A stretch of DNA of 64,000 bases, from the NCBI GenBank assembly GCA_963664225.1, contig OY760937.1, positions 5,408,001 through 5,472,000 of the forward strand, given 5' to 3'. The DNA is from Verrucomicrobiia bacterium (GTDB lineage: Bacteria; Verrucomicrobiota; Verrucomicrobiia; Limisphaerales; UBA1319). The notes beneath the pieces are model-generated. The model did no database searches. It saw only the letters and a list, made by a program, of their open reading frames with translations, and was not told the DNA's origin. Below, piece after piece: positions 1-55,095 of the stretch. The stretch's first letter is position 1; every line of letters starts with the position of its first letter. A program made the position numbers and the translations under genes.

Positions 1-1
1 G

Positions 2-136
2 CTACCTATGATGAGTGTCTCTATGTGGCCTGCCCATGATGGAACTGTCTGGGCGGAGGTTGCCGGTGCATCCAAATCGGATGACACAATCAACGTTTCT
101 GAACAACGCTTCTACCGGGTCCTTCTTGTGCCATAG
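2..136 (+). CDS. 3' end of an upstream gene, paralog (at least at the C-terminus) of the two following beta-propeller proteins; partial
   Basis: Frame 2 reads ...WPAHDGTVWAEVAGASKSDDTINVSEQRFYRVLLVP* (TAG 134-136), nearly identical to the end of 302..3502 (ASKSDDTINGSEQRFYRVLLVP). Confidence 0.85.
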   Translation, partial: LPMMSVSMWPAHDGTVWAEVAGASKSDDTINVSEQRFYRVLLVP

Positions 137-177
137 TCACGCAAACAGCGTGCTTTTCATCTGATAGGGCCGAGTAC

Positions 178-207
178 AGTGTCAAAATCCCCGTGGATTT
201 TGACACT
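178..207. repeat. Perfect 13-bp inverted repeat (operator or hairpin)
   Basis: AGTGTCAAAATCC-CCGT-GGATTTTGACACT between paralogs; no U-tract follows. Confidence 0.6.
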
Positions 208-301
208 TGCATTATACCGTGAATGCCTTTTGAATAATTGGCATCCAGACGTTGATGGATCAGGGGATCGGTGGTTTTGCTGCGTTCCAGATGGACCTAT
301 C

Positions 302-3300
302 ATGAATATGAAAACTGTTGTCCTGGTGTTTCTCGCTTATTTGGCCGCTTCCAGCCGCGTGTGTCTGGCGGATATTGAGCCGGTATCATTCGTGGATCCA
401 TCCATTGCGAACAGCCTTTCTGCAAACGGATATTCGGCGATGTCAGAAATAAGTCCGGATGGGCGCTATGTCGTGTTTGAGAGCATCGCAAGCAACCTGG
501 CAACGAACGATTACAATTATTGCGCTGACGTTTTTTTGCGCGATCGCCAATCCGGTACAACCATTTTGATCAGTGCCAATCCGGATGGTTTCAGCGGGCA
601 TGGCGGTTCCAGTAGTTCCTCCATGAGCACAAACGGAGCTTGGGTTGCTTTTGAAAGTGATGCCGAAGATCTGGCTGCCGGGGACGACAACGGTGTCACG
701 GATGTCTTTCTAAGAAGTGTCACACTGGGGCAAACCTCCCTGGTCAGTGTGAATACCAATGGAACTTCGGCAAATGGTCCATCGACCTTTCCCATCATCA
801 CTCCAGACGGACGGTTCGTGGCATTTGAAAGCGCGGCGACTGATTTGGTGACCAACGTCAGCGCGATGGTCAACATGCGTGGCAGCGGCATTAACGTTTA
901 TCTGCGCGATCTATCCAGCAATGCCACGTTTCTTGCCAGTGGAAGCTCCAACGGGTTCGCCGGAGGTGACGGGGAATCCAAATTGTCAGCCGTATCTGCG
1001 GACGGGCGGTATGTCCTGTTCTCGAGTTTTGCCAAAAACATTGGCGCGCCATTGAACTCTGGCAGTGATATTTATTTGCGGGATATCCAGGCTCAGAGCA
1101 ACTACTGGGTCAGCACCAATGTGGCGCAGTTGCTTGGAGTGGGGAGGTATATCAAATATAGTGCCAATTGCTTCAATCCTGTGATGAGTGGCGATGGCCG
1201 GAGCATTGCCTTTCGCGTCATAAAGGATTATTCGAGCCTGATCGTGCGCCACGATCTCGCCTCCAACACCACGTTGGTGATCTCCTCGAACCGCTACCCA
1301 ACGTTCGTTTTTCCGTCGGATTACACAGGTCCTGCCATCAGTGAAGATGGCGGGGTTATTGCCTATGCGGAGGTCGATAAAAAATATATTAACACCACGA
1401 CAAATCAGATTTACGTATGGGATTCCATCAGTAAAACAAACACGATGGTTACTTGGGCGCCTGATGGCAAAACATTCGGCAATGCGGGTTCCGATTGCCC
1501 GGTGCTCAGTGCTGACGGGAGCACGCTGGCCTTTTTAAGCGCAGCCACAAACCTGGTTGCCGGCACGTCTGCTGAAGCTCATGTCCGTTTATATCTCCGC
1601 GATCTTGCCGCTGGTGTCACTAAACTCGGCAATCAAGAAACCAACCCATCTAAACCCCTCGGTGATGTCCTGGAATATCCGGTGCTCAGCGCGGACGGCA
1701 GTTTGGCGGCTTTTGGCTGCTCTTCAGATGGATTGGTGGACAGCGACAATAACGGCGTGGATGATGTGTTTATCAACCACACTGAAACCGGCATTACCGA
1801 ACTGGTCTCTTCCCGGTCCCCGGTGCTCGATTTCACGATTGCCTCCAGCGGCAGTTTTATCGCGGAAAACGGATTGAGTCGTGATGGGCGTTTTGCCGTA
1901 TTCTCCACAGCGGCAGATAACATGGTGGCTGGAGATGCAAATGTCGCCTGGGACATCTTTGTTCGAGACCTTCAGACGAAAGACCTCATTCTTGTGAGTG
2001 GGAATATCGACGGCATCGGCACTGGCAATGGATCTTCCATGCTGCCATCCATCAGCGCTGACGGAAATTTGGTGGCTTTTCAAAGCGAGGCATCGGATCT
2101 GGTATCCGGGGATACCAACAAGACAACCGATGTGTTCCTTTATGACCTCGCCACCAGGGAGATCCGGTTGGTCAGTGCAGCCTATGGCGGCACTGGAAGC
2201 GCGTTGGGGGCCTCAGAAAGCCCCGTAATTACTCATGATGGCCGCACCGTGGTCTTTAGGAGCAAGGCAAAAAATCTTACCTCCAAAACTTTCACTGATT
2301 CGCTTCCCAAACTTTACGCACGCGATATCGCGGCCGGATCAAATGTCGTCATTTCCTTTAACAATTTGCCCATTGGAAATCCTTTGCTATTGGATATTGC
2401 GCCTGACAGCCAACGCATCGCCTTTGTTGGAAATGCCAGCCTCGGAGCCATGCCGCTTTACATCCATGATATTTCCGCCCAACTCAGTGAAAATATCGAC
2501 ACCATCACCAGCCAGACTCATCCTCTAGCCACATTCAGTGGTGATGGACGCTGGCTGGCTTACCTCAATGCCGTTACAACCAAAAGCAACAATCTGATCC
2601 TGCGTGATCTGGTGGCAAAAACCAACCTGACCCTGGGTGTGGATGGCGGGGTCTGGAAAATATCCTTCAATGGGGATGGTTCCCGCCTGGCCTACGAAGC
2701 CCTTGGCACTGTGTCCATGCCGACGAATACACACCAGATCTTCGTGTTCGACAGGGCTCAGGGTTCGAACATTCTGGTCAGCGCAACAGTGGGAGGTGAT
2801 AACGGTGGAAATGGCGATTCCCGCAATCCGATCCTCAGCCAGGACGGAAGATATGTTTATTTCAACAGCCACGCCACGGACCTTGCCAATGTGGTCGATC
2901 AACAGATTTGGGCTGACGTGTTCGTTCGGGACTTGAATGACGGCACGACTCGCCTGCTCAGCGTCAACAGGTTTAAGACCGGCGCCGGCAATAGCCAGTC
3001 GGTTCTGCGGGCATTAAGCGCGGATGGAAAGGTCGTGGCCATTGAGAGTGTGGCATCAGACTTGGTCCCCATGGATTTGAACATGTCCAAAGATGTGTTT
3101 GTCCTGCGTCTCAATGCGGCTGTGGAGGATTCGGATAATGATGGCCTCAGCGACAGTTGGGAGATCGAGCATTTTGGCAGCCTGGATCGCAATGGGGCGG
3201 GGGATTACGACGGGGATGGCATGAGCGACAGTGCGGAATATTTGGCGGGAACAAATCCAGCGGATAAACAATCCGCATTGGTTATAACACAAATAGGGAA

Positions 3301-3502: not shown

Positions 3503-3583
3503 ATGACGCATTGCCGCGTGTTTTTCATCAGGTTTGATAAGAAGCACGAAATCTGACGTGGGAATATCGAATGAATATTGGCT

Positions 3584-3599: not shown

Positions 3600-3660
3600 T
3601 TGAAATAACACAACAATTGGAAGGTGTTACCGCAAGTTAGATTGCCTTGGGAAAATCAAT

Positions 3661-29445: not shown

Positions 29446-29454
29446 GGAGCCACC

Positions 29455-31908
29455 ATGAAATCATACTGGATAAACCATCCTTTGGCGCGGATTGCCCTCG
29501 TGGAACTGGCTCTGGCAACAACTGGATTCGCGGCCGACACGCCCGCAGTGGATGTTTCAAAGCTCCCTCCGGCAGCGACACGCAAGGTCGATTATGAAAA
29601 GGACATTAAACCGATCCTGGAGACCGCTTGTTTCCTGTGCCATGGCCCTGAAAGTCCCAAGAGTCGCTTCAATCTGACCACGCAGGAAACAGCCTTGAAG
29701 GGTGGACGGCGCGGGGTGGATATTGTGCCAAAACAAAGCGCGCAAAGCCCCCTCGTCCACTATATATCCGGCGTCATTGAGGATTTGCACATGCCCCCGG
29801 GCAATGCCAAAGCCCTGACGCCTGGCGAGATCGGGCTCCTGCGTGCGTGGATCGATCAGGGACCAGAGTGGTCAAAAGCAGAACCCCCGGGACCGCCCAT
29901 GACATTTTCGGCCTCTCCACAGCTCCGGTGGATTGCTGTCAGCGGTGACGAGGCGAAGTTTCGGGAGCATTACTGGGTCAATGACGGCTGGGGCGGCGGG
30001 CTCAGGGAATTTGAACTGGTCGGGAAGAAATCCCCACACGACACCGTCCGGGTCGAGGGCCGCATCCTGCCTGCGGAACACGATTACAAAACCTCCGTAT
30101 CGTATGCCCGCCAGGACCTGGGTTATGCGCGATTTGACTGGGAGCAGTATCGCAAATATTACGATGATTCGGGCGATTATTATCCGGGCCTGCACATCAT
30201 TCCCTACCGGCTGGACCAGGATCTCCATCTCGACATGGGTAAGGCAAAGTTTGAACTCGGATTAAACAAGCCCGACTGGCCCAGGATTAAACTGGGTTAC
30301 GATTATCAATATAAAGAAGGGAACAAAACAAGCCTGGCCTGGGGATCTGTTGGCGCGCGGCCTCCCGAATACAATGCCCTCGATAGTCGCAAAATCTATC
30401 CCTCCTTTAAGTACGTGGACGAACACGCCCACTTGATTCATTTGGATATCGATCATGATTCCCCTGTCGTCCGCCTCACGGACAATTTTCAGGCCGAATT
30501 TTACACACAGGATGACCAGCTTCACGAGGTCACCTATGCCAGCGCGGTTTCCGGGAATGCGGAACGGTTTGCCGTCGTCAAGGAACGCTATGAGCATTTC
30601 CAGGCGGCCAATGCCTTTCGACTCGAAAAACAGGTCAACTCCTGGCTGTATCTCTCCGCGGGTTATCTCTTCAGCACATTGGACGGGGATAGCATGTTCA
30701 ACGCATCGACATTGCTCTCACCGGTCTCCACGGCAGGCTATTCAGGCGATGACAAATTCTGGCTGAGCCACCAGATCCTGGTCGATCAGCAAACCCACAC
30801 TTTCAATGTCAACACACTCCTTGGTCCCTGGGACGGACTGAATATTTCAGCGGGCATTCAAAACGAATGGATGTCGCAGCATGGATTTGGCGATGTCAGC
30901 CTTAACGAGGGTGATCCAACTAATCCATTGACCTTTATTGAGCAACCTGCAATACTGCGTTCTGACATGGACCGTGTCACCACCGACGAACAGGTCGGCA
31001 TGCGTTACACTAAAATTCCATACACGGTAATCTATGCGGAAGGCCGCTTCCAGCAGGAGGCCATGGGACAGGCGGATGAAATGCATGAAACGCCCTCTTT
31101 GCTGGGACATGACTTCCTCCAAAACACTGATGTGTCCGGGGACTTGAAGGAATACCGGACGGGCTTCGATCTTTCGCCCTGGCGGAAGATCAGCCTCAAC
31201 GCCAGTATTCGTCACCGCGATAAACAGACGGATTACGACCATTTGACGCGCCTGCAGCGCACAGATGCCGGGGCATTTCCCTATGATGGATATCCGGCGT
31301 TTATCAAATCGCGTAATGTTAATACAGACGAATTTCAAACCAAGCTCGCGTACCGGCCTTTCCCCTGGTGGAAGGCGACCCTGACATATCAATTGGTCTC
31401 CACGGATTACAGGACAGAAACGGCCAGTGTATCCGGCGATATAACACCCGGCGGCCCGGCGACCGCCGCAACTTTTGATTCCGGCATCTATTCCATCAAC
31501 AACACGTTCACGCCGTGGCGGCGTCTGAGTATTTCGGGAACCTTTTCCTACCGGGACGGACGCACGAAGACCGCGTACAACGGAATTGCCGGCGTAGTTC
31601 CTTACGAGGGGGACGTTTTCAGTGTGATCGCGAGCTCCACTTATGTCCTCACCGAAAAAACAGATTTGGACGCCAGCTATTCCTTTTCCCGCGCCGATTA
31701 CCGTCAGAATAACGCCGCAAGTGGATTGCCTCTGGGCATCAATTATGACTGGCACAGCGTGATGGCGGGAGTGCGTCGTGAGATCAGCAAGAACATGACT
31801 GCGCGCCTGCAATACGGTTTCTTTCGATATGCAGAACCGACAAGTGGTAACGCGGCCAATTACGATGCTCACGCGATCTTTGCGACATTGCTCGTGCGTT
31901 TGCCGTGA
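29455..31908 (+). CDS. MtrB/PioB-like outer-membrane beta-barrel with N-terminal planctomycete-type monoheme cytochrome c domain
   Basis: AAGGAG RBS; signal peptide; VDYEKDIKPIL..CFLCHG...MPP...LLRAWIDQG; then about 670 aa of alternating Tyr-rich beta-strands; 9 nt after the multiheme gene. Confidence 0.8.
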   Translation: MKSYWINHPLARIALVELALATTGFAADTPAVDVSKLPPAATRKVDYEKDIKPILETACFLCHGPESPKSRFNLTTQETALKGGRRGVDIVPKQSAQSPLVHYISGVIEDLHMPPGNAKALTPGEIGLLRAWIDQGPEWSKAEPPGPPMTFSASPQLRWIAVSGDEAKFREHYWVNDGWGGGLREFELVGKKSPHDTVRVEGRILPAEHDYKTSVSYARQDLGYARFDWEQYRKYYDDSGDYYPGLHIIPYRLDQDLHLDMGKAKFELGLNKPDWPRIKLGYDYQYKEGNKTSLAWGSVGARPPEYNALDSRKIYPSFKYVDEHAHLIHLDIDHDSPVVRLTDNFQAEFYTQDDQLHEVTYASAVSGNAERFAVVKERYEHFQAANAFRLEKQVNSWLYLSAGYLFSTLDGDSMFNASTLLSPVSTAGYSGDDKFWLSHQILVDQQTHTFNVNTLLGPWDGLNISAGIQNEWMSQHGFGDVSLNEGDPTNPLTFIEQPAILRSDMDRVTTDEQVGMRYTKIPYTVIYAEGRFQQEAMGQADEMHETPSLLGHDFLQNTDVSGDLKEYRTGFDLSPWRKISLNASIRHRDKQTDYDHLTRLQRTDAGAFPYDGYPAFIKSRNVNTDEFQTKLAYRPFPWWKATLTYQLVSTDYRTETASVSGDITPGGPATAATFDSGIYSINNTFTPWRRLSISGTFSYRDGRTKTAYNGIAGVVPYEGDVFSVIASSTYVLTEKTDLDASYSFSRADYRQNNAASGLPLGINYDWHSVMAGVRREISKNMTARLQYGFFRYAEPTSGNAANYDAHAIFATLLVRLP

Positions 31909-31955: not shown

Positions 31956-33308
31956 TTATTCTTTTGTGATGCTCAGTTTATCCATCATCTCGTAAAGCGT
32001 GGGACGGCTGATTCCCAATTCCGTGGCCGCCTTGCTGATGTTGCCATTGTTCCGGCGCAGGGCTTGTTGGATCATGGTTAATTCCAATCCTTCCCGCGCT
32101 TCCTTGAGGCTGCGGGCCATGCTGTTTTCCACAGAATCGGTTAATTCAAGATTGGCGGCTGTGACCCATTTTCCATCGGACATGATGACGGCGCGTTTGA
32201 CGCGATTCTCAAGCTCCCTGACGTTTCCCGGCCAGTGGTAACATTGAAGAGCGCGCAGGGCGTCCTGGCTGAATTTTTGGTTTTCCTTCTTACTTTGCGC
32301 GGCAAAGGCTTGCAGGAAGGTCTGCGCCAGAATGAGCACATCGTTCTTGCGTTCCCGCAACGGAGGTAATTTCAGGACGACGACCGCGAGCCTGTAATAG
32401 AGATCCTCCCTGAATCTGGCTTCCTGCATGGCGCGTTTGAGGTCGGTATTGGTGGCGGCGATGACACGGGCATCCACGGGGATTTTTTCACGGCCACCGA
32501 CGCGTTCGATGTATAGTTCCTGAAGGTAGCGCAGGATTTTGACCTGGAGATGGGAGGGCAGTTCGCCGATTTCATCCAGGAAGAGTGTGCCGCCCGAGGC
32601 GGTTTCAATGCGTCCGCGACGTTGCACATGCGCGCCCGTGAAGGAGCCTTTTTCGTGTCCAAACAACTCGCTTTCCAGAAGGTTTTCCGGAATGGCCCCG
32701 CAATTGATGGCTACAAACGGGCCGTCTTTGCGCGGGCTGGAACGGTGAATGGCCTGGGCCGCCATTTCCTTTCCGGTGCCGCTCTCTCCCAGGATCAGGA
32801 CCGGCGCGTCTGTCGTGGCGACTTTGCGAATCTGGGCGAAAACCTCCTGCATCAGGGGGCCGGCGCCAAGCATCCCTTCAAAGGAGTCCGGTCCGAGCCG
32901 CTGCTCCATTTCGTGGAAATCCTTTTCGAGACGGGCGACATGGATGGCCCGTTTAAGAATGACGGCCAGTTCGGTCATATCCACCGGTTTGCAAAGAAAA
33001 TCATAGGCCCCATGCCCGATGGCCTGGAGGGCGTTATCTTTTTCGGACTGGCCGGTGATCATGATGATTTTGGCGCGAGAATCCCGGGCGAGCAGATCGG
33101 CGAGGGTGTTGAATCCCTCCTTGCCGTCGGCGGGATTGGGAGGCAGGCCCAGGTCCAGCAGAACGACGATGGGGTGATGTTCCTGATATCTGGCCAGGGC
33201 GGAGGCGCGGTCTTCAGCGAGCGAAACATCGTAATTCTCAGCGAGGGCCCACTTCATTTGCGAGCGTATGTCTTCATCATCATCCACGATGAGCAGGTGC
33301 GGTTTCAT
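31956..33308 (-). CDS. prsR: PEP-CTERM-box sigma-54 response regulator (NtrC family)
   Basis: Receiver LLDLGLPP, GESGTGKE, GSFTGA, FLDEIG, WPGNVREL, Fis-type HTH LGISRPTLY; adjacent to prsK. Confidence 0.88.
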   Translation of the reverse strand: MKPHLLIVDDDEDIRSQMKWALAENYDVSLAEDRASALARYQEHHPIVVLLDLGLPPNPADGKEGFNTLADLLARDSRAKIIMITGQSEKDNALQAIGHGAYDFLCKPVDMTELAVILKRAIHVARLEKDFHEMEQRLGPDSFEGMLGAGPLMQEVFAQIRKVATTDAPVLILGESGTGKEMAAQAIHRSSPRKDGPFVAINCGAIPENLLESELFGHEKGSFTGAHVQRRGRIETASGGTLFLDEIGELPSHLQVKILRYLQELYIERVGGREKIPVDARVIAATNTDLKRAMQEARFREDLYYRLAVVVLKLPPLRERKNDVLILAQTFLQAFAAQSKKENQKFSQDALRALQCYHWPGNVRELENRVKRAVIMSDGKWVTAANLELTDSVENSMARSLKEAREGLELTMIQQALRRNNGNISKAATELGISRPTLYEMMDKLSITKE

Positions 33309-33309
33309 G

Positions 33310-35421
33310 TTAGTTGTGATGGAGTGGAAGCATTATTTTAAACGTGGTTCCCCGGTCTGGTTCGCTTTGCACCTCAATTTTTCCCTGATGCGCGTCGAGG
33401 ATCATTTTGCTATGGAACATGCCGATTCCAATTCCTTTTTTCTTGGTGGTTTGAAAAGGGCGAAAGAGCGAATTGCGCATGAACTCCGCGCTCATGCCGC
33501 AGCCGTTGTCGCTGACGGATACAATGGCCCATCCGTTCTGGCGCCCGGTTTCGACATGGATCTCTCCTCCTTTTCCCAAGGCGTCGCGGGCGTTAAGAAT
33601 CAGATTGGTAATCACGCTTTGAATCTGGCCGGGATCGATCATGACAGGCGGCGTTGGAGACAGGTTTTTAACGAGAGTGATTCCAGGCATTTCATGCAAA
33701 CCAGCCAGGGCGGCGTTTGCGATCAGGCCAAGGTCGGTTTCCACGGGGTGAAGCTTTAGTTCCTTGCGCAACAAACTCAGGCGCTCAATCAGCTCATTGA
33801 TATGGTTGACACTGCGACCGACCGCCCTTAGCGCGTCCGCCCGGAATTCGGGATCGTCAAAATGCAGCGGAAGGTTTTGGAGCATCAAGGAAAGAGTGGC
33901 GGCGGTGTTCTTGAGGTCATGGACAAAGAAAGCCGACATGGTCTGAAAGGCCTCCATCTCCCGGGCCTGCAGGAGACGGTGCGAAAGATGGATGTTTAAT
34001 AAATTACTGGCGATCTGGTCTCCCAGGCATTTGAGGAGATCGAGGTCTTCCGTCGAATAGGCAAGCCCGCCAACCCGGTCCCAGACGGTCATGATTCCAA
34101 GCAGTTGTCCCCCCGCCGAAAGGGCCGCGCACAGATGTCCACCGCCTTTGCCGTAAATATCCGGATTAATTTTATTCAACAGGGCATAACGCGCGTCATT
34201 TCCCTGGGCAATGTCGATTGGATGGGACTGCCTGGAAGCAGCCTGGAGAAGGGTGGCGACCTTCTCCAGAGGCAGGTGAAATTCCAGCGCGGCGGCTTCG
34301 GTGATCGAGGTTGACGCGCCGAAAACAAGGCGCTGATTCTGCGAATCGACGAGCCAAATTGTCACTGAGAGGGCATGGAATGTTTCGGAAACCAACTGCG
34401 TGGTGGTTCGACAGAGGGACGGGCTGTCCATGATGGTGGCGGTTCGTCCGGTGAAGGCGCGCCAAATCTGCCTGTAATCATAAATTGAGCGTTTAAAATG
34501 GCGGCTGACGAAGCGTTTGGTTTGTTGTTGGAAACGGTCGGAAAGGAGAAGCAGGCCGCAAAGAACGACCGCCAATAACATGATGAATGCCTCGATCGGG
34601 AATGATGCGCTGCCGCCCCAATGGGCGACTACTTTGGCGAAGACTCCAACGATCAGCAAATAAAGACCGGCAAAAATGACCGTCAACGACCGGTGCAGAA
34701 CGCTTAATGAGGGATACAGATCGAGCGTGATGGCTTGGGTGCGCAGGAGCGCCACGGTGATCAATCCCGAGGCGAGGACCACGGAGACGGCCTGCGCCGA
34801 TTTGATTGAGAGGCCATAGGAAGAAAACAAGACGACCTGACTGCTGACATAAAACCTAAAAATAAACAGCACTCCCAAGCCCAGCATCATGAATTTGATG
34901 CGCCAGCGCATGGTGCCGACAGCGGCCTGAAACGTGCGCTCCAGGTTCATGAGAATCAGGACCGAGGCGACCAGAAAAATGAAATGGAGGGCGACTCCCG
35001 TGGAACTTAGATTCAAATTCAATTCCCCCGAAGGCATTGTCCGCAGATCGCGAAACAAGGGGTGGAACGGCAGGGATAGAACGATGGCCAGGGGCAACGC
35101 GAAGGCCAGGATCAGCGGCAGTCTCCATTTTTTGATGAAATCAAGGTGGTTTCCCCGGGAATAACTCAAGCTGAACAGCAGCCACAATCCCGGTTGGAGG
35201 GCCATTGCGGTCAGATTTAACTTTTGCCACGAAAGGACTGTATCAGGAGAAAGGGCCATCAGGCTCATGGCATCGAAACACGATTCGGAAGCCAGCAGAA
35301 ACATGCCGCCGGCGAAAGTCAAATTGGCCAGGGAACGCATGCCAGGCCGGAGAGCTGCAACGGCCAGGGCAAGCGCGCAACAGGCTGCCGCCACGACAAG
35401 TATAACGGAAATGGCTGTCAT
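33310..35421 (-). CDS. prsK: PEP-CTERM system histidine kinase
   Basis: N-terminal multi-TM region, FVSRHF...YDYRQIW, GAF, MSAFFVHDLKN, DNGCGM, FRPFQTTK..GIGIGM. Confidence 0.88.
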   Translation of the reverse strand: MTAISVILVVAAACCALALAVAALRPGMRSLANLTFAGGMFLLASESCFDAMSLMALSPDTVLSWQKLNLTAMALQPGLWLLFSLSYSRGNHLDFIKKWRLPLILAFALPLAIVLSLPFHPLFRDLRTMPSGELNLNLSSTGVALHFIFLVASVLILMNLERTFQAAVGTMRWRIKFMMLGLGVLFIFRFYVSSQVVLFSSYGLSIKSAQAVSVVLASGLITVALLRTQAITLDLYPSLSVLHRSLTVIFAGLYLLIVGVFAKVVAHWGGSASFPIEAFIMLLAVVLCGLLLLSDRFQQQTKRFVSRHFKRSIYDYRQIWRAFTGRTATIMDSPSLCRTTTQLVSETFHALSVTIWLVDSQNQRLVFGASTSITEAAALEFHLPLEKVATLLQAASRQSHPIDIAQGNDARYALLNKINPDIYGKGGGHLCAALSAGGQLLGIMTVWDRVGGLAYSTEDLDLLKCLGDQIASNLLNIHLSHRLLQAREMEAFQTMSAFFVHDLKNTAATLSLMLQNLPLHFDDPEFRADALRAVGRSVNHINELIERLSLLRKELKLHPVETDLGLIANAALAGLHEMPGITLVKNLSPTPPVMIDPGQIQSVITNLILNARDALGKGGEIHVETGRQNGWAIVSVSDNGCGMSAEFMRNSLFRPFQTTKKKGIGIGMFHSKMILDAHQGKIEVQSEPDRGTTFKIMLPLHHN

Positions 35422-35503: not shown

Positions 35504-36634
35504 TTATCGCGTCGGCGGGGTGAAACTCACGCTGGTGCCCACAGGGGCCGCCCCTTTAATAACCGCATTGCGGCCTTCATTGACGGCGATCGTGCTGACA
35601 AATTGGTTCAGGATCTGATCGCCAAAGATACCCAGTTTGCGATATGGCGCGAAGGGCACATAGACGATGTCGCCGGGTTCCAGACGGACATCCCTGGCCT
35701 GGCCCCGGAAAACGCGTCCAAAATCAACAATGGCGATTCGTGGATTGGCCAGAGAGCCGCGAAGAACCGCGACATGGCTCACATAAGCGTAGGGAATGGT
35801 ACCGCCGACGCTGCTGATGGCGCCCACCAGCGAGGTTGGCTCGGTATAGGGGATCGCATTGGGCATGGCCACCGCGCCCATGACATAAACGGTGCGCGCC
35901 ACCGCCGAGCGCAGATAGACAAAGTCGTCCGGCTGCAAATAAATATTCTGGGAGAGGTCGCCCATGCGCAGTAAACGATGGAAATTGACTTTCAACATCT
36001 GGCCGCCCCGCATGACGAAACTGTTCTGCAGGTCTGCGGTTTCCTCGGAGGAACCCGGTATGCCGGAAATGCCGCCGGCCAGGGCGATGGCTTCGAGGAC
36101 GGTTGTTGGAGTGGCCAGGGAATAGACTCCTGGAGTTTGAACATTGCCCAGAATCCAAAGTCGGCGGCTGCCCACCGCTTTGAGGGTCAAGACGACTTCT
36201 GGCTGCATCCGGACGTATTTGGTCATCTCCTTCTCGAGCATTTGCTTGGTTTCGGCAAGGGTGAGTCCCCATGCGAACATTCCCGGAAGAAGGTTGAAAT
36301 AAATTTTACCATCAGGCCCCACGGTTGTGGTGGTGCGCGACAGCGGATCGCCCAGAAGTTCAATTTCGACGATGTCGCTGGGACCAAGCCGGAATAGATC
36401 GGAGGGTGGCTTGAGCCATTCCGCATGCACCATGTTGGTGGAATCGACGGTGGTGAATGCCTGCTCGTCCAGGGTGGTCATTTTGGGTGGCCGACCAGGA
36501 TCAGCGAGGGCCGCAACCGGTTTGCCATCGGGCGGAGTGGATTGATGAGGGTCAAACCGGGGTCCGTAACTTTGGCATCCAGCAAACAGAGCGAGACCCA
36601 GAAATCCGATGGCCAGGTGTGTGAAGTTTTTCAT
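35504..36634 (-). CDS. Wza-like polysaccharide export lipoprotein (Poly_export plus SLBB domains)
   Basis: Lipobox LFAGC; FRLGPSD..V.PDGKI, GNVQTPGVY, LQPDDFVY, LEPGDIVYVP. Confidence 0.88.
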   Translation of the reverse strand: MKNFTHLAIGFLGLALFAGCQSYGPRFDPHQSTPPDGKPVAALADPGRPPKMTTLDEQAFTTVDSTNMVHAEWLKPPSDLFRLGPSDIVEIELLGDPLSRTTTTVGPDGKIYFNLLPGMFAWGLTLAETKQMLEKEMTKYVRMQPEVVLTLKAVGSRRLWILGNVQTPGVYSLATPTTVLEAIALAGGISGIPGSSEETADLQNSFVMRGGQMLKVNFHRLLRMGDLSQNIYLQPDDFVYLRSAVARTVYVMGAVAMPNAIPYTEPTSLVGAISSVGGTIPYAYVSHVAVLRGSLANPRIAIVDFGRVFRGQARDVRLEPGDIVYVPFAPYRKLGIFGDQILNQFVSTIAVNEGRNAVIKGAAPVGTSVSFTPPTR

Positions 36635-36637
36635 GGG

Positions 36638-39637
36638 CTATTTGAGAAAAGGATCCGCAATCAAAGGCCCGATATTCGCGCCAGTCCAGGTGATGACAGC
36701 GCTCCGGGTAAAGTCTGAGATAACCGATTCGAGTAATTCCGAGGCCTTGGACCACGGCTGCCGATACACATATACGATGTCGCGGGGTTTGAGTTGGAAA
36801 TCGGGTTGTCTGGCATTGTAAATCTTGGAGGCGCTGACCACGAAGGTTTCCGGGTTCTTGAGCGAACCGCGGACAATCAATAGATTGCTCTTGTAGGCCC
36901 TTTCCGTAAAGCCACCGCGGGTAATGATCGCTTTCAGGGCGGTCATATCCGAGGAGTAGGGCGCCACACCGGGGGTTCGCACTTCTCCAAGGACATAGAC
37001 CTCCTGCAAATCCGCAGGAGGGAAGAACAGGTAATCGTCGGGGGCGATGGTTTGATTTTGATTCAAATCGCCCCTCAAAAACAAGGCTTCAAAGTCGATG
37101 TTGACCCTTTGAAACGCGCCATCCGGATTGCGGCGGATCATGAAGCTGCGGGAAAGGTCGGCCAATTGGACCGAGGTGCGTTGTTGGAGAACGCTAGTGA
37201 AGCCGCGGGCGCGGGCGATGGCTTCGACAATCGTTGTGGGGCGGTCGAGCGGAAACACGCCTTTCTGATTCACGTTGCCGAGGATGAAATATTTTTTGCT
37301 GTTGTAGGCGGTGGGTATGATGATGACCCGCACGGAACGATAGAATTTGGACAGGACTTTCTCGAGTTCCACACGCAATTCGTCCACGGTGAGACCCGCT
37401 GCCTGAACATCCTGCGCTTGTAGATAGGTCAGCCGCCCGTCGGGCCCGATAAAAACGCCCAGCTTGGCTGAGTCAGGTTGCTCATAGAGGGAAATGTTCA
37501 AGACATCCCCGGGACCGAGAGTGAGGTGTTTTTGCCAATCCGCCAATTTGTCGGGTCCGGCGGCTGAAAAAGAAATGGTGTTGGTGGGAGCTGTTTCGAC
37601 CGCTGCAACCGGTGCGTTATCCTGGGCGTGAATCCGCATTGGCGTCACCAGACACGCAAGGAGCATTGCGGCCATGCTGGCGGTCGCGCTGAAGCCTTTA
37701 CGCCAGGCAGGCGTTTTTGCATGGTTCAAAACACTACCCACCACGTTGCTGCGCGAAAGACGCAGGGTCTCCAGTTGGGCGCGGGTTTCATCGATGTTGG
37801 CCATATCTTGTCCACATAACCAGATCACCTGGGGCACTTTTTCGGCCAGGAGAACCGATTCGGCTCTGGACGCTGGCGGCAGCTCCACAAAGACGATCAG
37901 GTTTTCCGTTGCGTTCCATTGTTGAAGGGTCGTCCGCCATTGTTCACGACGCTCCAGATTCCATGCCCAGGCAGGCACAGGAATGCGAACCACGGATTTT
38001 TGAGTGGGAGTCATAAGAGCATTGTTGGCTTCAGAGGTGTTTTCCAGTGTGGCAATGGGGCTGTTTTCAACCGGCGCGGCCGGATCGGCATCGAAATCGG
38101 CGCCGTCGGATTGGGGGGCGGCGTCAACGGTGAGCACGCGGTAGCCTTGTTTTCGGGCCGCTTCGGCAAGGAGTTTGATCCAGGTGGAGCGGCCCTCTCC
38201 ATGCGATGAGGAAGTGAATCCGCATACGAGCGCTTCTTCAGTGGTTTTTTTCAAGGTCCCTTTCAGCATCGCAAGGGTTCTGAAGGCCCATTGTTCCCGG
38301 GCATCCTTATTCATTTCCCGCAAATCTCCCAAGGCCGCCAGCACGGGCAAAGGAATGGCCCGCATTAAATCGACTTTGGATCGTATCCGGCGGTCTTTCG
38401 TTTCGACCCAGAGGATCGACAGGATCGCCAAAAGCAGGCCAATCGCCGCCGCCAGCACACTTCCTATTATGGCAGGATTCAGTTTCTGAGACCAGTTTAA
38501 ATCTTCGATTTTGGCCGGTTCAAACAGCCTGTAATAACCCGAGATGGCGGTCTCGAGGAGCTGGATTTCCTGCTGGCGCGTGGAGAGTAAATCCCGATTG
38601 GCTATGAGGGATTGGTAGCGGGATTTTATTTTGGTGTATTCGAGACGCTTTTCGGGCAATCCAGCCAGTTCCTCGCGCAGTTGTTTGATTTCCGCGGTTG
38701 CTTTCTCAAGTTCCCGATTCAATCCGATTTTCTGGCTTCGAAGTTCCACCACGCGCATGTAAAGCGTCCCTGCCATGGTGTTGCTCCAATTCATGCTTCC
38801 AGAAGTGAATTGCGGACCCCGCTCGGCAATCTGACGCTGGATGGCTGTCACGGACGCCCGGAGTTCCTTGATCCTGGGGTGTTCCTCGGTGAACCGTAAA
38901 AGCGCGCTATCCAACGCCTCCTGCGCCGCGAGCAGGGCGGGGGATTGCCGCGTGATTTCCTGCATCAGGTTCGTGATTTGCAGGTCGGTGGTATCGATTT
39001 GAGAGCGGAGTTTATCTGTCTGCATCTCCAAATCGGCCCGATGTTGCAGTCGCGCGGGAGTCTCTTTTTCCAGGTCCACAAAACCAGTTTCTTTTTGATA
39101 CTGGGTCAGTTCCCGATCCGTTGCCGCGAGTTTGGAGTCCATGGCTGAAAGCCTTTGTTTGAGGGCAACGTTGAGGGACTGGACTTCGTTGGATTGAAGA
39201 TTCTGGGCGAGCCTGATCGCCTCGTTCGCGTAGGTGTTGGCCAGTTGGACGGTTTGATCGGGATTCTTTCCCTTCAGACTCAGGGCGATCAGCTCGGTAT
39301 TGGGGACTGCGGTGACCCGGGAGCACGCCTCGATTTCTTCGGGCGTGATCCGCATTCCCGCCTTCGCGGACACATCGCGCAGCAGTCCGGGCGACCTCAT
39401 CAGGTCAATGAGCGTGGGAACTGAGAACTCGCGTAATTTAAAGACTTCACCCTCGTAATTGTAGGTGGTAAAAGCCGGGGGAGCGTTGCGAACCAGTTTG
39501 ACGGTCGCAGTGTGATTGGCCAGGTCAAAACCAGCCACGAATCCGGCAAACGCGGCGAAGCCGGCGACAATAAGAAGCACATGCCATCGTTGCAGGAGGG
39601 CATCGACAAAACGTGCCAAATCCATGCGGTGTTTCAT
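36638..39637 (-). CDS. Wzc-like chain-length/pseudokinase protein fused to a Wza-like Poly_export/SLBB module
   Basis: TM, coiled coil (FTEEHPRIKEL), TM, Walker-A-like TSSSHGEGRST, GSVLN, then hydrophobic MAAMLLACLVTPMRIHA-QD, LGPGDVL..IGPDG, GNVNQKG, GEVRTPG, LKPRDIVYV; one uninterrupted 999-aa ORF. Confidence 0.82.
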   Translation of the reverse strand: MKHRMDLARFVDALLQRWHVLLIVAGFAAFAGFVAGFDLANHTATVKLVRNAPPAFTTYNYEGEVFKLREFSVPTLIDLMRSPGLLRDVSAKAGMRITPEEIEACSRVTAVPNTELIALSLKGKNPDQTVQLANTYANEAIRLAQNLQSNEVQSLNVALKQRLSAMDSKLAATDRELTQYQKETGFVDLEKETPARLQHRADLEMQTDKLRSQIDTTDLQITNLMQEITRQSPALLAAQEALDSALLRFTEEHPRIKELRASVTAIQRQIAERGPQFTSGSMNWSNTMAGTLYMRVVELRSQKIGLNRELEKATAEIKQLREELAGLPEKRLEYTKIKSRYQSLIANRDLLSTRQQEIQLLETAISGYYRLFEPAKIEDLNWSQKLNPAIIGSVLAAAIGLLLAILSILWVETKDRRIRSKVDLMRAIPLPVLAALGDLREMNKDAREQWAFRTLAMLKGTLKKTTEEALVCGFTSSSHGEGRSTWIKLLAEAARKQGYRVLTVDAAPQSDGADFDADPAAPVENSPIATLENTSEANNALMTPTQKSVVRIPVPAWAWNLERREQWRTTLQQWNATENLIVFVELPPASRAESVLLAEKVPQVIWLCGQDMANIDETRAQLETLRLSRSNVVGSVLNHAKTPAWRKGFSATASMAAMLLACLVTPMRIHAQDNAPVAAVETAPTNTISFSAAGPDKLADWQKHLTLGPGDVLNISLYEQPDSAKLGVFIGPDGRLTYLQAQDVQAAGLTVDELRVELEKVLSKFYRSVRVIIIPTAYNSKKYFILGNVNQKGVFPLDRPTTIVEAIARARGFTSVLQQRTSVQLADLSRSFMIRRNPDGAFQRVNIDFEALFLRGDLNQNQTIAPDDYLFFPPADLQEVYVLGEVRTPGVAPYSSDMTALKAIITRGGFTERAYKSNLLIVRGSLKNPETFVVSASKIYNARQPDFQLKPRDIVYVYRQPWSKASELLESVISDFTRSAVITWTGANIGPLIADPFLK

Positions 39638-39860
39638 CCGGTTGATGGAGTGCTTACGAGGTCATTCCCATGGTAATGCATTGAAACAGGCCCCTTCTGG
39701 TCGAGTTCCTTCTAATGGGATTTCTCGAATCCGATAACTCATTGCGATCGTTGGTGATGCAAATTATATTATATATCAATGCCACATCATTTCAATCTGT
39801 CAATTTTGAAATCAAATATTATTGCGAATACATGCTATTTCGAGATACGCACCAGATGGT

Positions 39861-39953
39861 TGGGGAACGGCAAAGCCAAACAAAGGTTGATCACGGGCGC
39901 CTTTCCGTTGGAAACCGAGAGGCCGATAGAAATCGGCCCTTCGGTACATCCCC
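39861..39953 (-). ncRNA. Candidate structured cis-regulatory RNA in the long leader of the wzc-wza-prsKR operon
   Basis: Hairpin ACCGA-GA-GGCCGAT-AGAA-ATCGGCC-CT-TCGGT (39914-39945), small TTTCC/GGAAA stem, closing GGGGA/TCCCC; GC-rich island in an AT-rich spacer. Confidence 0.35.
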
Positions 39954-40036
39954 GCAGGCAGGTTAGAAAAAACAACTTCAACTGGAATAGCAAGTCAAGT
40001 AATATATCAAAGACCCAGTTGGCCGTAATCAACATT

Positions 40037-40052
40037 AGCAATATGTGTGCCA
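40037..40052 (-). promoter_or_regulatory. Sigma-54 -24/-12 promoter of the wzc-wza-prsKR operon
   Basis: Minus strand TGGCACACATATTGCT is an exact TGGCAC-N5-TTGCW match. Confidence 0.85.
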
Positions 40053-40151
40053 TTACCAAAAAAAACGGTTAATAATAACGCAACATGTTAATGATTAGGC
40101 ACAAGAAACACAACCATAACGGTGTTAAGAATGCTCATGACAATATTATAA

Positions 40152-40168
40152 TGTAAAAAAAACTTACA
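40152..40168. promoter_or_regulatory. Putative PrsR enhancer box 1
   Basis: TGTAA-AAAAAAC-TTACA, 100 nt upstream of the sigma-54 site. Confidence 0.7.
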
Positions 40169-40265
40169 TCAATAGATTGGCAGGATTTCCGAAATCGGCT
40201 AAAAATATTACGTAAATAACTGGTTATGAATAGGATGTGACTAATTGATTCAGGAGTGGGTAGTT

Positions 40266-40282
40266 TGTAAAACATCCTTACA
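40266..40282. promoter_or_regulatory. Putative PrsR enhancer box 2
   Basis: TGTAA-AACATCC-TTACA, same 17-bp geometry as box 1. Confidence 0.7.
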
Positions 40283-40460
40283 CATTTACATTAACTGAAG
40301 TGCCCGTTTCATAATTGCGCGACCCCATTCTCATTGGAGTATTGCAACCATGATTTCTTCAAGGGATTCGTTCAAAATAACCAGTATTTACGGATTCCGT
40401 TTTCGATGGTAGTCTGAGTGCCGAATCCCAATATCAGCAAACACGCAATCGGCCAAACAT

Positions 40461-55055: not shown

Positions 55056-55095
55056 GGTGTCACTGCGGATGCGTTCTTAAACCACGGAGATTTTA

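Follow-up and report, generated by a model that had tools for sequence, protein, structure and literature searches.

The open reading frame at 36638..39637 (-) of the window, i.e. of the whole stretch of 64,000 nucleotides that was analysed, starts with ATG and encodes a protein of 999 amino acids, in which a PCP part, a pseudo-BY-kinase, an internal signal peptide and an OPX module (OPX1) follow each other in one chain. Residues 1-643 form a PCP-2a (Wzc/PslE-like) co-polymerase and the last ~300 residues a Wza-like OPX; the fusion of both is real, represents a conserved family and is no artefact. We consider it fairly probable that the fused product is a polyprotein, which signal peptidase I would convert into a phosphorylation-independent PCP and a periplasmic OPX working with a lipoprotein OPX.

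Domain architecture of the fused protein

The fused gene is supported by domain matches (Pfam, profile and Foldseek) together with the homologue set, and all of its parts described in the following are given for the (-) strand. Hydropathy analysis unveiled three hydrophobic segments, comprising residues 19-37, 390-408 and 649-669. The first one (39527..39583, hydropathy peak 2.13) is TM1, the N-in signal anchor of the PCP part, and the second one belongs to TM2 (residues 390-412, 38402..38470, peak 2.66); between them lies the periplasmic helical PCP domain (residues 38-389, 38471..39526), assigned by the family profile match to PslE/Wzc and by long helices in the model. Downstream of TM2 the chain continues with a cytoplasmic domain of BY-kinase fold without the catalytic signature (residues 415-643, 37709..38395; profile, Foldseek and motif statistics), an internal Sec-type signal peptide (residues 644-671, 37625..37708; hydropathy, family statistics and split relatives) and a disordered, poorly conserved linker rich in Ala, Pro and Thr (residues 672-697, 37547..37624; pLDDT and family alignment). 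OPX1 (residues 698-960, 36758..37546) consists of Poly_export (D1) and two SLBB domains (D2 and D3), as derived from Pfam and the match to the Wza profile, and is followed in the model by a C-terminal helix (residues 963-988, 36674..36751) at the position of Wza domain 4.

A profile built from 101 homologues and compared with solved structures matched Wza (E 4.2e-33), PslE (5.8e-27) and Wzc (1.9e-17) as well as the BY-kinase CapA/CapB (E 1.7e-7, profile positions 446-686), each match covering the expected part of the fused protein. In analogy, a Foldseek search with the AlphaFold model of the fused protein returned full-length Wzc (4.4e-21), Wza (7.6e-19) and CapA1B1 (6.8e-9). Hydropathy, profile and Foldseek agree on two TM helices around a large helical periplasmic domain, and profile and Foldseek on the C-terminal cytoplasmic P-loop domain of BY-kinase fold, both of which define a PCP-2a. 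The Wzc architecture of a single 999-residue frame, as proposed by the sequence-only reading, is therefore borne out by the ORF, hydropathy, profile and Foldseek. For the N-terminal half, no Pfam match exceeded its cut-off (best CbiA, 18.3 bits versus 25.4) and the chain-length determinant model TIGR03007 scored 46 bits, below its cut-off of 278.85.

For OPX1, Pfam placed Poly_export (PF02563) at residues 704-772 with 50.9 bits (cut-off 28), and SLBB_2/SLBB in two stretches reaching to residue 957 (PF22461, 66.6 versus 27; PF10531, 61.8 versus 27), which is the order of Poly_export (PES) and SLBB domains expected of an OPX; the export protein model TIGR03027 reached 111.6 bits, below its cut-off of 180. 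Superposition of the OPX1 model on 2j58_A by VIA-align aligned 251 residues (Z 17.9, rmsd 8.3, model 1..270 on chain 73..344). This rigid alignment ends at residue 344-346 of Wza, before the C-terminal helix, and is thus silent on the role of the helix. The latter was predicted at residues 963-988 in the full model and at 965-985 in the model of OPX1 alone (pLDDT 56-74), and its residues E967, L968, A972, F976 and G986 are at least 90% conserved. Consequently, Poly_export, the SLBB domains and, as a prediction of the model, the C-terminal helix named in the sequence-only reading were all recovered. According to the consulted sections of PMC9603273, the Wza_C helix of OPX Class 1 spans the outer membrane, the class being defined by homology to at least 10 of the 34 residues 326-359 of 2J58, and ~78% of its members carry a lipoprotein signal. 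Here, a helix of 21-26 residues stands right after D3, and the profile alignment enters this region by 12 residues for one Wza chain and by 5 for 2j58_A. OPX1 has no Cys after the signal segment and hence no lipoprotein signal by the Class 1 criterion.

Conservation of the fusion and its gene neighbourhood

The homologue search yielded 1052 sequences with E<=1e-3 among 8000 scored, and 113 of the 120 homologues listed are at least 940 amino acids long; these 113 form the alignment used below. Among candidate stretches from species-representative genomes 247 of 255 encode a relative, and the best 80 of those relatives belong almost all to the Verrucomicrobiota. At all of these 80 best loci the junction is one open frame without a stop codon, so that full-length homologues with the same domain order do exist. 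The family occurs frequently among Verrucomicrobiota of soil and freshwater, where its annotation reads merely "polysaccharide biosynthesis/export family protein". In a phylum sample, 68 of 301 genomes gave a match at E<=1e-20; most of these matches cover the OPX part only, and the number is therefore not a count of the fusion.

The sequence-only reading had named homologues that are always split, or a stop codon or frameshift at the junction, as observations that would speak against the fusion. Neither was found, although split forms occur in some lineages. In four split relatives the third helix is missing from the end of the PCP gene; OPX1 has its own gene there, whose product bears a signal peptide at the N-terminus with an end such as ASA|E or SAA|Q, and OPX2 comes next. 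This signal peptide sits at the same spot as the internal segment of the fused protein, stop and start codons overlap at the junction position, and a GT4 glycosyltransferase and a Wzx-type flippase are encoded on the flanks of the four loci. Furthermore, 19 unfused relatives carry the motif GEG[RKC][ST]T (GEGR in 15 of them), and eight of these 19 stop at one spot, just before the n-region of the signal peptide. A quick tree of the OPX1 domain, calculated from 77 rows (every second fused homologue, five split forms and two additional fused forms, with every fifth OPX2 as outgroup), grouped the five split rows together (support 90), within a basal fork whose lack of resolution leaves room for both directions, fusion and fission. 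Since stop and start codons overlap in the split relatives, a small change there could fuse the two genes, and an assembly error, or a recent fusion of pseudogene-like character that joined two adjacent genes in this genome alone, would be conceivable in principle. We regard the probability of this explanation as negligible and rejected it: fused homologues with 35-83% identity occur in hundreds of genomes, both halves of the fused protein are strongly conserved, the junction is open in the 80 best loci, and in contigs of three runs, which belong to two studies and may include the source, positions 37300-38100 are covered with 0 differences and 0 gaps.

The gene directly downstream had been missed in the first reading of the locus. 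It encodes OPX2 (35504..36634 (-), assigned by Pfam), a paralogous Wza-like lipoprotein of 376 amino acids with its lipoprotein Cys at residue 20, which starts 3 nt after the stop codon of the fused gene and shares 34% identity with OPX1 (E 2e-50). OPX2 lies directly downstream of the fused gene in all 73 related loci with room for it, and its Cys20 is invariant (65/65); a second, lipoprotein OPX beside the fused gene is obligatory. The complex model of OPX1 and OPX2 reached a score of 0.64 (best control 0.00), with at least 97% of the contacts shared between runs and a partner pLDDT of at least 75. A score of 0.64 is reached by 116 of 157 solved complexes and by 2 of 215 mismatched pairs, a calibration that holds only roughly because our own alignments were used for the model. 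The score may simply arise from the resemblance that both chains bear to the solved homo-octamer of Wza.

On the same strand and in the same run of genes as the fused gene and OPX2 we found PrsK, the PEP-CTERM system histidine kinase (33310..35421 (-); TIGR02916, 384.2 bits versus a cut-off of 300), and PrsR, the sigma-54-dependent PEP-CTERM-box response regulator (31956..33308 (-); TIGR02915, 615.4 bits versus 502.6). A sigma-54-type element, TGGCAC-N5-TTGCT (40037..40052 (-)), lies ~400 nt upstream of the fused gene within an AT-rich spacer (GC 0.37); it follows the -24/-12 consensus and is the sole mismatch-free match among 41 with at most two mismatches in the window. The shared run with PrsK and PrsR behind a sigma-54-type promoter indicates that, in this genome, the fused gene and OPX2 probably belong to a PEP-CTERM/exosortase exopolysaccharide regulon; three exosortase genes are located elsewhere in the genome. 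The linkage to PrsK and PrsR recurs in 2 of 80 related loci, and the sigma-54 element in none of the 54 related loci with enough upstream DNA, where background matches were absent as well. The regulatory part is thus specific to this genome and not to the family. The neighbours of fused loci vary: in eight of them, no glycosyltransferase, flippase or polymerase was present within 2-3 ORFs on each side, and response regulators or histidine kinases stand next to three of these eight and next to one further locus.

Pseudokinase domain and internal signal peptide

In the parts of PMC9800525 consulted, a competent BY-kinase is defined by Walker A, Walker A' (four hydrophobic residues before DxDxR), Walker B (four hydrophobic residues before DxxP) and a C-terminal Tyr cluster, the second Asp of Walker A' is proposed to drive the chemistry, and an oligomerisation motif is defined. 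The cytoplasmic domain of the fused protein retains the fold, with CapA1B1 (4jlv, 6.8e-9), the Wzc kinase domain (3la6_E, 3.4e-8) and Etk (3cio_D, 1e-7) as Foldseek matches, but the catalytic Lys (now Arg), DxDxR and the Tyr cluster are lost. Instead of GX5GK[ST] with the catalytic Lys, the Walker A-like motif reads G480-E-G-R-S-T (38183..38200 (-)), and in the alignment of the 113 listed homologues the Lys position is occupied by R in 98, K in 8, C in 4, V in 2 and T in 1. The Walker B-like motif IVFVELPP (residues 581-588, 37874..37897 (-)) deviates from the canonical DxxP by a conservative exchange of Asp for Glu (E 103, D 9, Q 1 of 113 in the same alignment), while P587 is invariant. The sequence in place of Walker A' is VLTVDAAPQ. 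Of the 113 listed homologues, 23 carry the first Asp; where the second one would be expected, the five most frequent residues are R, K, Q, G and S, with no Asp among them, and make up 83 of 113. Residues 636-660 are free of Tyr in 105 of the 113 and contain a single Tyr in the other 8, and rather than ending after the kinase-like domain the chain runs on into the signal peptide. Three canonical Wzc paralogues of the same genome have kept GK[ST], DxDxR, DxxP and the Tyr clusters. The sequence-only reading was consequently right about a pseudokinase with GEGRST and without a Tyr cluster; its reading of FVELPP was correct too, while the term "degenerate" overstated a D-to-E change that is kept in 103 of the 113.

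Kinase-dead precedents are PslE (PMC13434223) and EcpK (PMC12004946), as far as the consulted sections of these papers describe them. Here, the exchanges of Lys for Arg and Asp for Glu are mild and strongly conserved, so that the domain may still bind nucleotides and the word "dead" may go too far. It is accordingly conceivable, although we consider it rather unlikely, that the domain is no inert scaffold and acts as a working nucleotide switch, which would bind ATP, perhaps hydrolyse it slowly, and control oligomerisation by its nucleotide state instead of by Tyr phosphorylation. Both exchanges are the mildest possible ones, hardly any positions of the entire chain are better conserved than G480, E481, G482, S/T484, T485, W486 and E585-L-P-P, and the helix of the oligomerisation motif is retained as W450-A-F-R-T-L. 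Against a switch speak C, V or T at the Lys position in 7 of the 113 listed homologues, the loss of DxDxR with the Asp that PMC9800525, in the part consulted, proposes for the chemistry, and the missing Tyr substrates. Such a switch would be compatible with a polyprotein and would refine one step of its action.

A Sec signal peptide comprises a basic n-region, a hydrophobic core of ~7-15 residues and small residues at -3 and -1. By this rule, the internal segment has all of these elements: an n-region PAWRKGF with the basic WRK at residues 646-648, an h-region MAAMLLACLVTPM and a c-region RIHA, with a predicted cut at A671|Q672 (nt 37625|37624), i.e. at I-H-A|Q after MAAMLLACLVTPM. The third hydrophobic segment is short (KD 1.63), and its uncharged run has a family median of 16 residues versus 21 for TM1 and 23 for TM2. 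A strict cleavage site (-3 small or aliphatic, -1 A/G, +1 Q/A/E/D, no Pro) was found in 103 of the 113 listed homologues, compared to 61.8 for shuffled tails and 34 of 113 for TM1 as a control of the same orientation; a loose (-3,-1) rule is nearly uninformative (112 of 113 versus 101.5 shuffled). In those 103, the residue at -1 is mostly Ala (90) and otherwise Gly (13). The net charge is at least +1 before the core in 108 and at most 0 after it in 109 of the 113. Evidently, the signal-like third helix and the SPase-I-like site before QD that had been noticed from the sequence hold up across the family, and cleavage after A671 is predicted from these rule-based site counts. These features could also be relics of an ancestral separate gene, without present-day cleavage.

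In the mechanism that we propose, the gene product would be a precursor that gives rise to two components of a polysaccharide export machine of the Wzx/Wzy type. TM2 would place the kinase-like domain in the cytoplasm, and the internal signal would then insert N-in/C-out and export the OPX part, followed by a cut after A671 by signal peptidase I. The remaining inner-membrane PCP with its three helices would assemble independently of phosphotyrosine cycling, in the way suggested for PslE and EcpK/EpsV, whereas the released OPX1 would be non-lipidated, periplasmic and present in a 1:1 ratio to the PCP. According to the complex model, it would join OPX2 side by side in a Wza-like ring, which would receive the polymer from the PCP and convey it to the outer membrane.

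The sequence-only reading had left the choice between a single trans-envelope exporter and a self-processing polyprotein. The polyprotein gains from the preserved signal features and the matching OPX1 of the split relatives, but "self-processing" does not stand, since the site resembles that of signal peptidase I and the host enzyme, not the protein itself, would cut; the single exporter is the less likely of the two. If the third segment were a permanent anchor, OPX1 would remain attached to its own PCP through the flexible linker, and an octameric PCP would carry its own OPX ring, docking to an OPX2 ring in the outer membrane. The preservation of the fusion in the 80 best loci and in at least 247 species-level genomes suggests a benefit of the covalent link as such, the topology fits, as D1 (the PCP-facing end of Wza) comes directly after the linker, the linker is disordered (pLDDT <50 over residues 665-686 of the AlphaFold model), and 10 of the 113 listed homologues have no strict cleavage site. 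We nevertheless judge an uncleaved protein to be rather unlikely: the core is shorter than that of true TM helices, small residues at -1 are kept much more often than in shuffled tails and more often than in the TM1 control, and the split relatives possess a free OPX1 with signal peptide. In addition, the PCP may rise up to ~165 Å (Saidi et al., PMC9603273, sections consulted); the linker has a median length of 31 residues in the family (range 16-159), and while 31 residues could just reach the apex of a compact PCP, linkers of 16 residues would hardly reach a top at 100 Å or more, as inferred from the same sections. Improbable, in our estimate, is a covalently continuous trans-envelope polysaccharide conduit with OPX2, formed by the uncut protein with its C-terminal helix entering the outer membrane. 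Such an uncut polypeptide would cross the inner membrane three times and then run through the periplasm into the outer membrane.

An only apparent fusion, with OPX1 made alone from an internal start at M655 (ATG at 37675) or nearby, appears very improbable to us. The in-frame ATG does stand at the beginning of the hydrophobic core, at the place where stop and start codons overlap in the split relatives, but the 12 nt before it show by eye no purine-rich Shine-Dalgarno-like run, and a product starting at M655 would miss the basic WRK, which is encoded upstream. Moreover, a Met near the core occurs in just 33 of the 113 listed homologues, and none of the 80 best loci has a stop codon between the two parts.

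Comparison with known export systems

The E. coli Wzc-Wza pair of group 1 capsule and colanic acid (PDB 7nhr, 2j58, 9r64/9r68) contains the same set of domains and folds, namely a PCP-2a with two TM helices, a helical periplasmic and a P-loop domain, and an OPX with Poly_export, two SLBB-type domains and a helix after D3. In E. coli, however, two genes encode Wzc and Wza as distinct proteins, of which Wzc, an active autokinase, possesses GK[ST], DxDxR, DxxP and a Tyr cluster and Wza is a single lipoprotein OPX, whereas here one ORF with an internal signal peptide encodes a PCP without the kinase signature and an OPX without lipobox, accompanied by the obligatory lipoprotein OPX. Among solved structures, PslE of the Pseudomonas aeruginosa PslE-PslD system (PDB 9v75, 9v6l) comes closest in sequence to the N-terminal part (E 5.8e-27). 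As described in the consulted sections of PMC13434223, PslE is devoid of the catalytic Lys and the Tyr-rich tail and is thus a phosphorylation-independent PCP working with an OPX, and PslD has no obvious C-terminal helix, while one is predicted for both OPX1 and OPX2. PslE and PslD are separate proteins with one OPX, in contrast to the fused protein and its two. The same concept is realised in Myxococcus xanthus by EpsV and EcpK; the latter is, according to the part of PMC12004946 consulted, a stand-alone protein of BY-kinase fold which has lost all motifs, including the Walker motifs and the Tyr tail, and serves as a scaffold for PCP-2. Here, the domain resides inside the PCP and has a near-canonical P-loop with Arg. 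The OPX of Myxococcus belong to the short Class 3 and act together with beta-barrel porins as pairs, as stated in the consulted sections of PMC9603273.

Full-text literature searches found no description of a fused PCP-OPX protein; supplements such as the OPX tables of PMC9603273 might list such proteins, and "fused" or "fusion" in the consulted parts of PMC9603273 and PMC12819527 refer to other matters. XrtA/PEP-CTERM exopolysaccharide loci resemble the locus in PrsK and PrsR, which pass the equivalog cut-offs, and the best NCBIfam matches of both fused halves are the export (TIGR03027) and chain-length (TIGR03007) models of such loci. Both halves score far below these equivalog cut-offs, and only 2 of 80 loci show the linkage to PrsK and PrsR. 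The cytochrome b/c1 precursor FbcH of Bradyrhizobium is a membrane polyprotein that is split by signal peptidase at an internal signal peptide. It shares the proposed logic of a polytopic part, an internal signal peptide and cleavage into two subunits in a 1:1 ratio; FbcH serves respiration, while the present case concerns polysaccharide export and its cleavage is predicted from the sequence.

For Wzx/Wzy-dependent export, the consulted sections of PMC9603273 present competing models of how PCP and OPX pair, in which ratio they do so and how the polymer passes the periplasm. The pairing, the ratio and the crossing of a wide periplasm are questions on which this family bears, since it represents a natural experiment in which the partners come from one gene in a 1:1 ratio and the kinase cycle is gone. 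As two paralogous long OPX, one secreted and one lipidated, always occur together, hetero-oligomeric or stacked OPX assemblies become testable. If the fused product is cleaved, it would also give a clear example from bacteria of a membrane polyprotein that signal peptidase resolves.

Domain architecture and conservation of the fused protein

A single open frame of 999 codons with an ATG start occupies 36638-39637 on the minus strand, and hydropathy analysis of its product revealed three hydrophobic segments (residues 19-37, 390-408 and 649-669), the last of which is shorter and weaker. Pfam matches were confined to the C-terminal third, with Poly_export at residues 704-772 and SLBB in two stretches to residue 957, and a CbiA/ParA P-loop match in the middle of the protein stayed below threshold. 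The best NCBIfam matches were TIGR03027 (PEP-CTERM export protein) for the C-terminal part and TIGR03007 (PEP-CTERM chain-length determinant) for residues 114-455, both scoring far under the equivalog cut-offs. The domain identities were settled by comparing a family profile of 101 homologues (A1) with solved structures: the last third matched Wza (E 4.2e-33), the periplasmic part together with the second membrane helix (TM2) matched PslE (E 5.8e-27) and Wzc (E 1.9e-17), and the cytoplasmic domain matched the CapA/CapB BY-kinase chimera (E 1.7e-7). An AlphaFold2 model of the whole protein, built on the A1 alignment, reached a mean pLDDT of 79.4 and a pTM of 0.42, indicating that the domains are modelled well and their mutual placement is not. 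Foldseek searches with this model returned full-length Wzc (4.4e-21), Wza (7.6e-19), CapA1B1 (6.8e-9), the Wzc kinase domain (3.4e-8) and Etk (1e-7). The Wza-like C-terminal module (OPX1), modelled separately with a pLDDT of 81.5, was superimposed on Wza (2j58_A) with Z 17.9 and rmsd 8.3 over 251 aligned residues, residues 1..270 of the model lying on 73..344 of the chain, which correspond to Wza domains 1-3 (D1-D3). Both models predict a helix directly after D3 (full model, residues 963-988; OPX1-only model, residues 965-985), which may correspond to the Wza_C outer-membrane helix. The protein falls within both the PCP-2a architecture of polysaccharide co-polymerases (PCP) and the OPX family of export proteins. 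It resembles the Wzc-Wza-type export pair in function and fold, its nearest solved relative being PslE with PslD, in which PslE is kinase-dead.

In a clustered protein collection, 1052 of the 8000 candidates scored had E<=1e-3. A length of at least 940 aa applies to 113 of the 120 homologues listed of these 1052, and nearly all of those listed showed 93-100% query coverage and 34-83% identity; where named, they were annotated as 'polysaccharide biosynthesis/export family protein' and assigned to Verrucomicrobiota. Full-length homologues with the same domain order, for which the sequence-only reading had proposed a search in support of a Wzc-Wza fusion, were found. With one genome taken per species, 247 of 255 candidate stretches encoded a relative, and the best 80 of these 247 came nearly all from Verrucomicrobiota (Opitutaceae, Limisphaerales, Pedosphaera, Verrucomicrobiia), three being labelled otherwise. 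In all 80 of these loci the end of the kinase-like domain is linked to the OPX part by one stop-free open frame. Furthermore, three runs belonging to two studies, the source possibly being among them, yielded Logan contigs that span the stretch 37300-38100 in one piece and with 0 differences, and a fourth run covers it partially. Neither a stop codon nor a frameshift, which the same reading had named among the observations that would speak against a fusion, was present at the junction in these loci and contigs, and the PCP-OPX fusion is a family and not an error. Frame breaks away from the junction were observed in the PCP part of locus L001 and the OPX part of locus L061; these two MAG loci, with the break inside the fused gene (L001:8968-12152 and L061:10711-11623), are either misassembled or copies in decay.

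Loss of the kinase signature

As set out in PMC9800525, BY-kinases are defined by a Walker A motif GX5GK[ST], a Walker A' motif of four hydrophobic residues and DxDxR, a Walker B motif of four hydrophobic residues and DxxP, a C-terminal Tyr cluster and an ExxRxxR oligomerisation motif. In the fused protein the motif positions read HGEGRST, VLTVDAAPQ and FVELPP, and the protein lacks the Lys, DxDxR and Tyr cluster of an active BY-kinase. Among the 113 full-length homologues the position of the Walker A Lys is occupied by R (98), K (8), C (4), V (2) or T (1), and the Walker B acid is Glu in 103 and Asp in 9. The first Asp of Walker A' is kept in 23 of the 113, Asp is absent from the five commonest residues at the second Walker A' Asp position, and the tail after the kinase-like domain contains no Tyr in 105 proteins and one Tyr in 8. 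Some of the strongest conservation in the entire protein falls on the P-loop glycines, S/T484, T485, W486, the ELPP motif and the helix W450-A-F-R-T-L. Since the replacements by Arg and Glu are the mildest available and are strongly kept, it is possible that the P-loop domain acts as a nucleotide-binding, non-phosphorylating switch. There are precedents for PCP systems with a dead kinase: PslE is described in PMC13434223 as being without the catalytic Lys and without a Tyr tail, and EcpK is introduced in PMC12004946 as a BY pseudokinase scaffold for EpsV.

Elsewhere the same genome encodes three ordinary OPX-Wzc pairs, and two of their three Wzc proteins, examined over the whole length, carry GK[ST], DxDxR, DxxP and long Tyr runs; consequently, the loss of the kinase signature is specific to the fused protein. 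The pairs, each with a short OPX of 222-252 aa followed by the PCP, are located on contig C1 of the source genome (G000:C1) at 961500-966017 (L083), 1901311-1905516 (L084) and 1700834-1704181 (L085), and the two PCPs with intact kinase motifs and Tyr clusters measure 748 and 732 aa. An ORF of 341 and 436 aa adjoins L084 and L085, respectively; both end in an aromatic residue and may be beta-barrel porins such as those that pair with Class 3 OPX proteins.

The junction and its split counterparts

Sequence identity is low in the stretch that separates the last strand of the kinase-like domain (VLN, 636-638) from the first conserved OPX motif (WQK, 701-703), yet every homologue shares one pattern of basic residues, a short hydrophobic run, small residues, Q/A and then an acidic or Pro/Ala/Thr-rich stretch. 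The longest uncharged run at the junction had a median of 16 residues, compared with 21 for the first membrane helix (TM1) and 23 for TM2 of the same proteins. A strict cleavage site, defined by -3 in AVLISTGC, A or G at -1, Q/A/E/D at +1, no Pro and a distance of at most 12 residues from the core, was found in 103 of the 113 homologues against a mean of 61.8 after shuffling of the local residues, whereas TM1, a control with the same N-in/C-out orientation, gave 34 of 113 against 31.8 expected by shuffling. The chosen strict sites carry Ala (90) or Gly (13) at -1 and mostly Ala (52) or Gln (49) at +1; a loose (-3,-1) rule did not discriminate (112/113 versus 101.5 shuffled). The 15 residues before the core have a net charge of at least +1 in 108 of the 113 proteins, and the 20 residues after it a net charge of at most 0 in 109. 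In the window protein the putative cleavage site lies at I669-H-A671/Q672-D-N (nt 37625/37624), and the structure model shows a helix at 644-663 and disorder at 665-686. Judged from these sequence features, the junction segment looks like a signal peptide.

In a phylum sample of 301 genomes, fused forms were detected in G237 (open frame of 971 aa) and G045 (1136 aa), while three separate overlapping or abutting genes were found in G165, G096, G294 and G005; G288, where the contig ends, is probably a further three-gene split locus. The alternative that homologues are always split at the junction thus does not hold for the best 80 loci, all of which are fused, but split forms do exist in these genomes. 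The gene order of the split loci is PCP, OPX1 (~330 aa) and a second OPX gene (OPX2). Their PCP (660 aa) ends after the cytoplasmic domain without a third hydrophobic segment, and their OPX1 begins with a classic signal peptide (e.g. ...VFAMVATASA/EDE, ...FVVGQSAA/QEE and ...LLACGNAALG/QEE). The module is tied to Wzx/Wzy-type synthesis by its flanking genes in G165 and G294, where a GT4 glycosyltransferase is encoded upstream and a Wzx-type flippase downstream.

The G165 PCP was used as a query against 1.84 billion representatives and gave 426 matches at E<=1e-3. The best 150 of these comprised 77 proteins of 590-780 aa without an OPX motif, 39 of at least 900 aa (of which 35 show an OPX motif when a crude pattern is applied), 33 shorter fragments and one of 781-899 aa. 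Nineteen unfused relatives among the best 150 displayed the motif GEG[RKC][ST]T, as GEGR (15), GEGK (3) or GEGC (1), so that an Arg-type P-loop also occurs without the fusion. By eye, 8 of these 19 end at one position, ...LN(H/R)xPxxxxxL, immediately N-terminal to the n-region of the fused form, placing the gene boundary of the split form at the start of the signal segment; others extend as far as the signal or linker and may be truncated ORFs. In a quick tree of the OPX1 domain rooted with OPX2, the five split rows formed one group (support 90) inside an unresolved basal fork.

The second exporter, genomic setting and proposed fate of the fused chain

The OPX2 gene (35504-36634) starts 3 nt past the stop of the fused gene and encodes a Wza-like protein of 376 aa with Poly_export and SLBB domains, which shares 34% identity with the OPX1 module over 289 residues (E 2e-50). 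All 73 related loci with room for it have an OPX2 homologue immediately downstream, seven loci ending too early, and OPX2 is in this respect an obligatory companion. Its Cys20 after the signal segment is invariant in 65 aligned homologues, marking OPX2 as a lipoprotein, and OPX1 has no corresponding Cys. Complex prediction for OPX1 (690-999) and mature OPX2 scored 0.64 (median of three runs; best control 0.00), and 116 of 157 solved complexes attained this value, as did 2 of 215 mismatched pairs; with self-made alignments as input, the calibration is only approximate. The runs agreed in at least 97% of contacts with a partner pLDDT of at least 75; the contacts of least error connect D1 to D1 of the opposite chain, in a side-by-side pose as of neighbours in the Wza ring. 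This predicted score may reflect no more than the likeness of both chains to the solved Wza octamer. At one related locus (L050:11658-15437) the OPX2 homologue extends as one open frame of 1260 aa whose C-terminal end resembles a response-regulator receiver, and either an additional fusion or an overlooked stop could account for this.

The fused gene and OPX2 form one co-directional run with the genes for the PEP-CTERM system histidine kinase PrsK (TIGR02916, 384 bits versus a cut-off of 300) and the sigma-54-dependent response regulator PrsR (TIGR02915, 615 bits versus 503). The spacer upstream of the fused gene (39640-40460) comprises ~800 nt, is AT-rich (GC 0.37) and contains, ~400 nt upstream of the gene on the minus strand, the sigma-54-type -24/-12 element TGGCAC-N5-TTGCT (40037-40052), the sole mismatch-free match in the window to the sigma-54 consensus. 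The element fits control by the activator PrsR, and its distance would imply a long leader or further regulatory sites. Linkage to PrsK/PrsR occurred in just 2 of 80 related loci, and a sigma-54 element was found upstream of the fused gene in 0 of the 54 related loci with enough upstream DNA. The immediate neighbours at eight other fused loci were variable, with response regulators or histidine kinases in three. Within the window no glycosyltransferase, flippase or polymerase genes lie beside the module, and the 5.78-Mb genome contains three exosortase genes and five Poly_export modules. At two related loci (L034:13060-19074 and L075:13760-18685) a giant protein of 2005 and 1642 aa, respectively, with CelD_N and glycoside hydrolase family 9 domains is encoded directly downstream of OPX2, which may hint at the type of polymer exported or trimmed. 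Elsewhere in the window, two tandem ~1100-aa proteins with PD40 beta-propeller repeats, the first also with bacterial TSP3 repeats, are encoded at 179-6846 (+), a multihaem cytochrome (Paired_CXXCH_1) adjoins a protein of 817 aa that carries a Planctomycete cytochrome c domain at 28537-31908 (+), two adjacent T2SSE-family ATPase genes lie at 53961-56301 (+), and a protein with a prepilin-type N-terminal methylation motif is encoded at 62369-63232 (-).

The architecture, the absence of the kinase signature, the split counterparts, the signal-like features of the junction and the constant presence of OPX2 are established; beyond them we infer, as more likely than not, a polyprotein that is cut by signal peptidase I into a phosphorylation-independent PCP and a free OPX1 working with OPX2. 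During co-translational insertion TM1 and TM2 would leave the helical domain on the periplasmic side and the P-loop domain in the cytoplasm, the internal signal would re-engage the Sec machinery and export the OPX1 part, and signal peptidase I would cut after A671. The chain could alternatively persist as an uncleaved tether that keeps OPX1 joined to its own PCP. Between the predicted +1 residue and the first OPX motif there are 31 residues in the median and 16 at minimum, so that a fully stretched tether is estimated to reach no further than ~110 A (median) or ~60 A (minimum), and a PCP height of up to ~165 A is possible according to PMC9603273. This short reach also favours cutting; overall, the uncleaved chain is a rather unlikely outcome. 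Far less probable still is internal translation initiation at ATG 37675, as this ATG is preceded by no Shine-Dalgarno-like run, initiation there would drop the basic n-region, and Met stands at this position in just 33 of the 113 homologues.

Cleavage of the polyprotein would yield a PCP with three helices, able to oligomerise in the absence of phosphotyrosine cycling, and a non-lipidated OPX1 in exact 1:1 ratio with the adjacent PCP, and OPX1 would assemble with the lipoprotein OPX2 into a conduit of the periplasm and outer membrane. With respect to the searchable literature, the covalent PCP-OPX fusion via a putative internal signal peptide, the breadth of this fusion in Verrucomicrobiota and the fixed pairing of long OPX paralogues, one predicted to be secreted and the other lipidated, are new.
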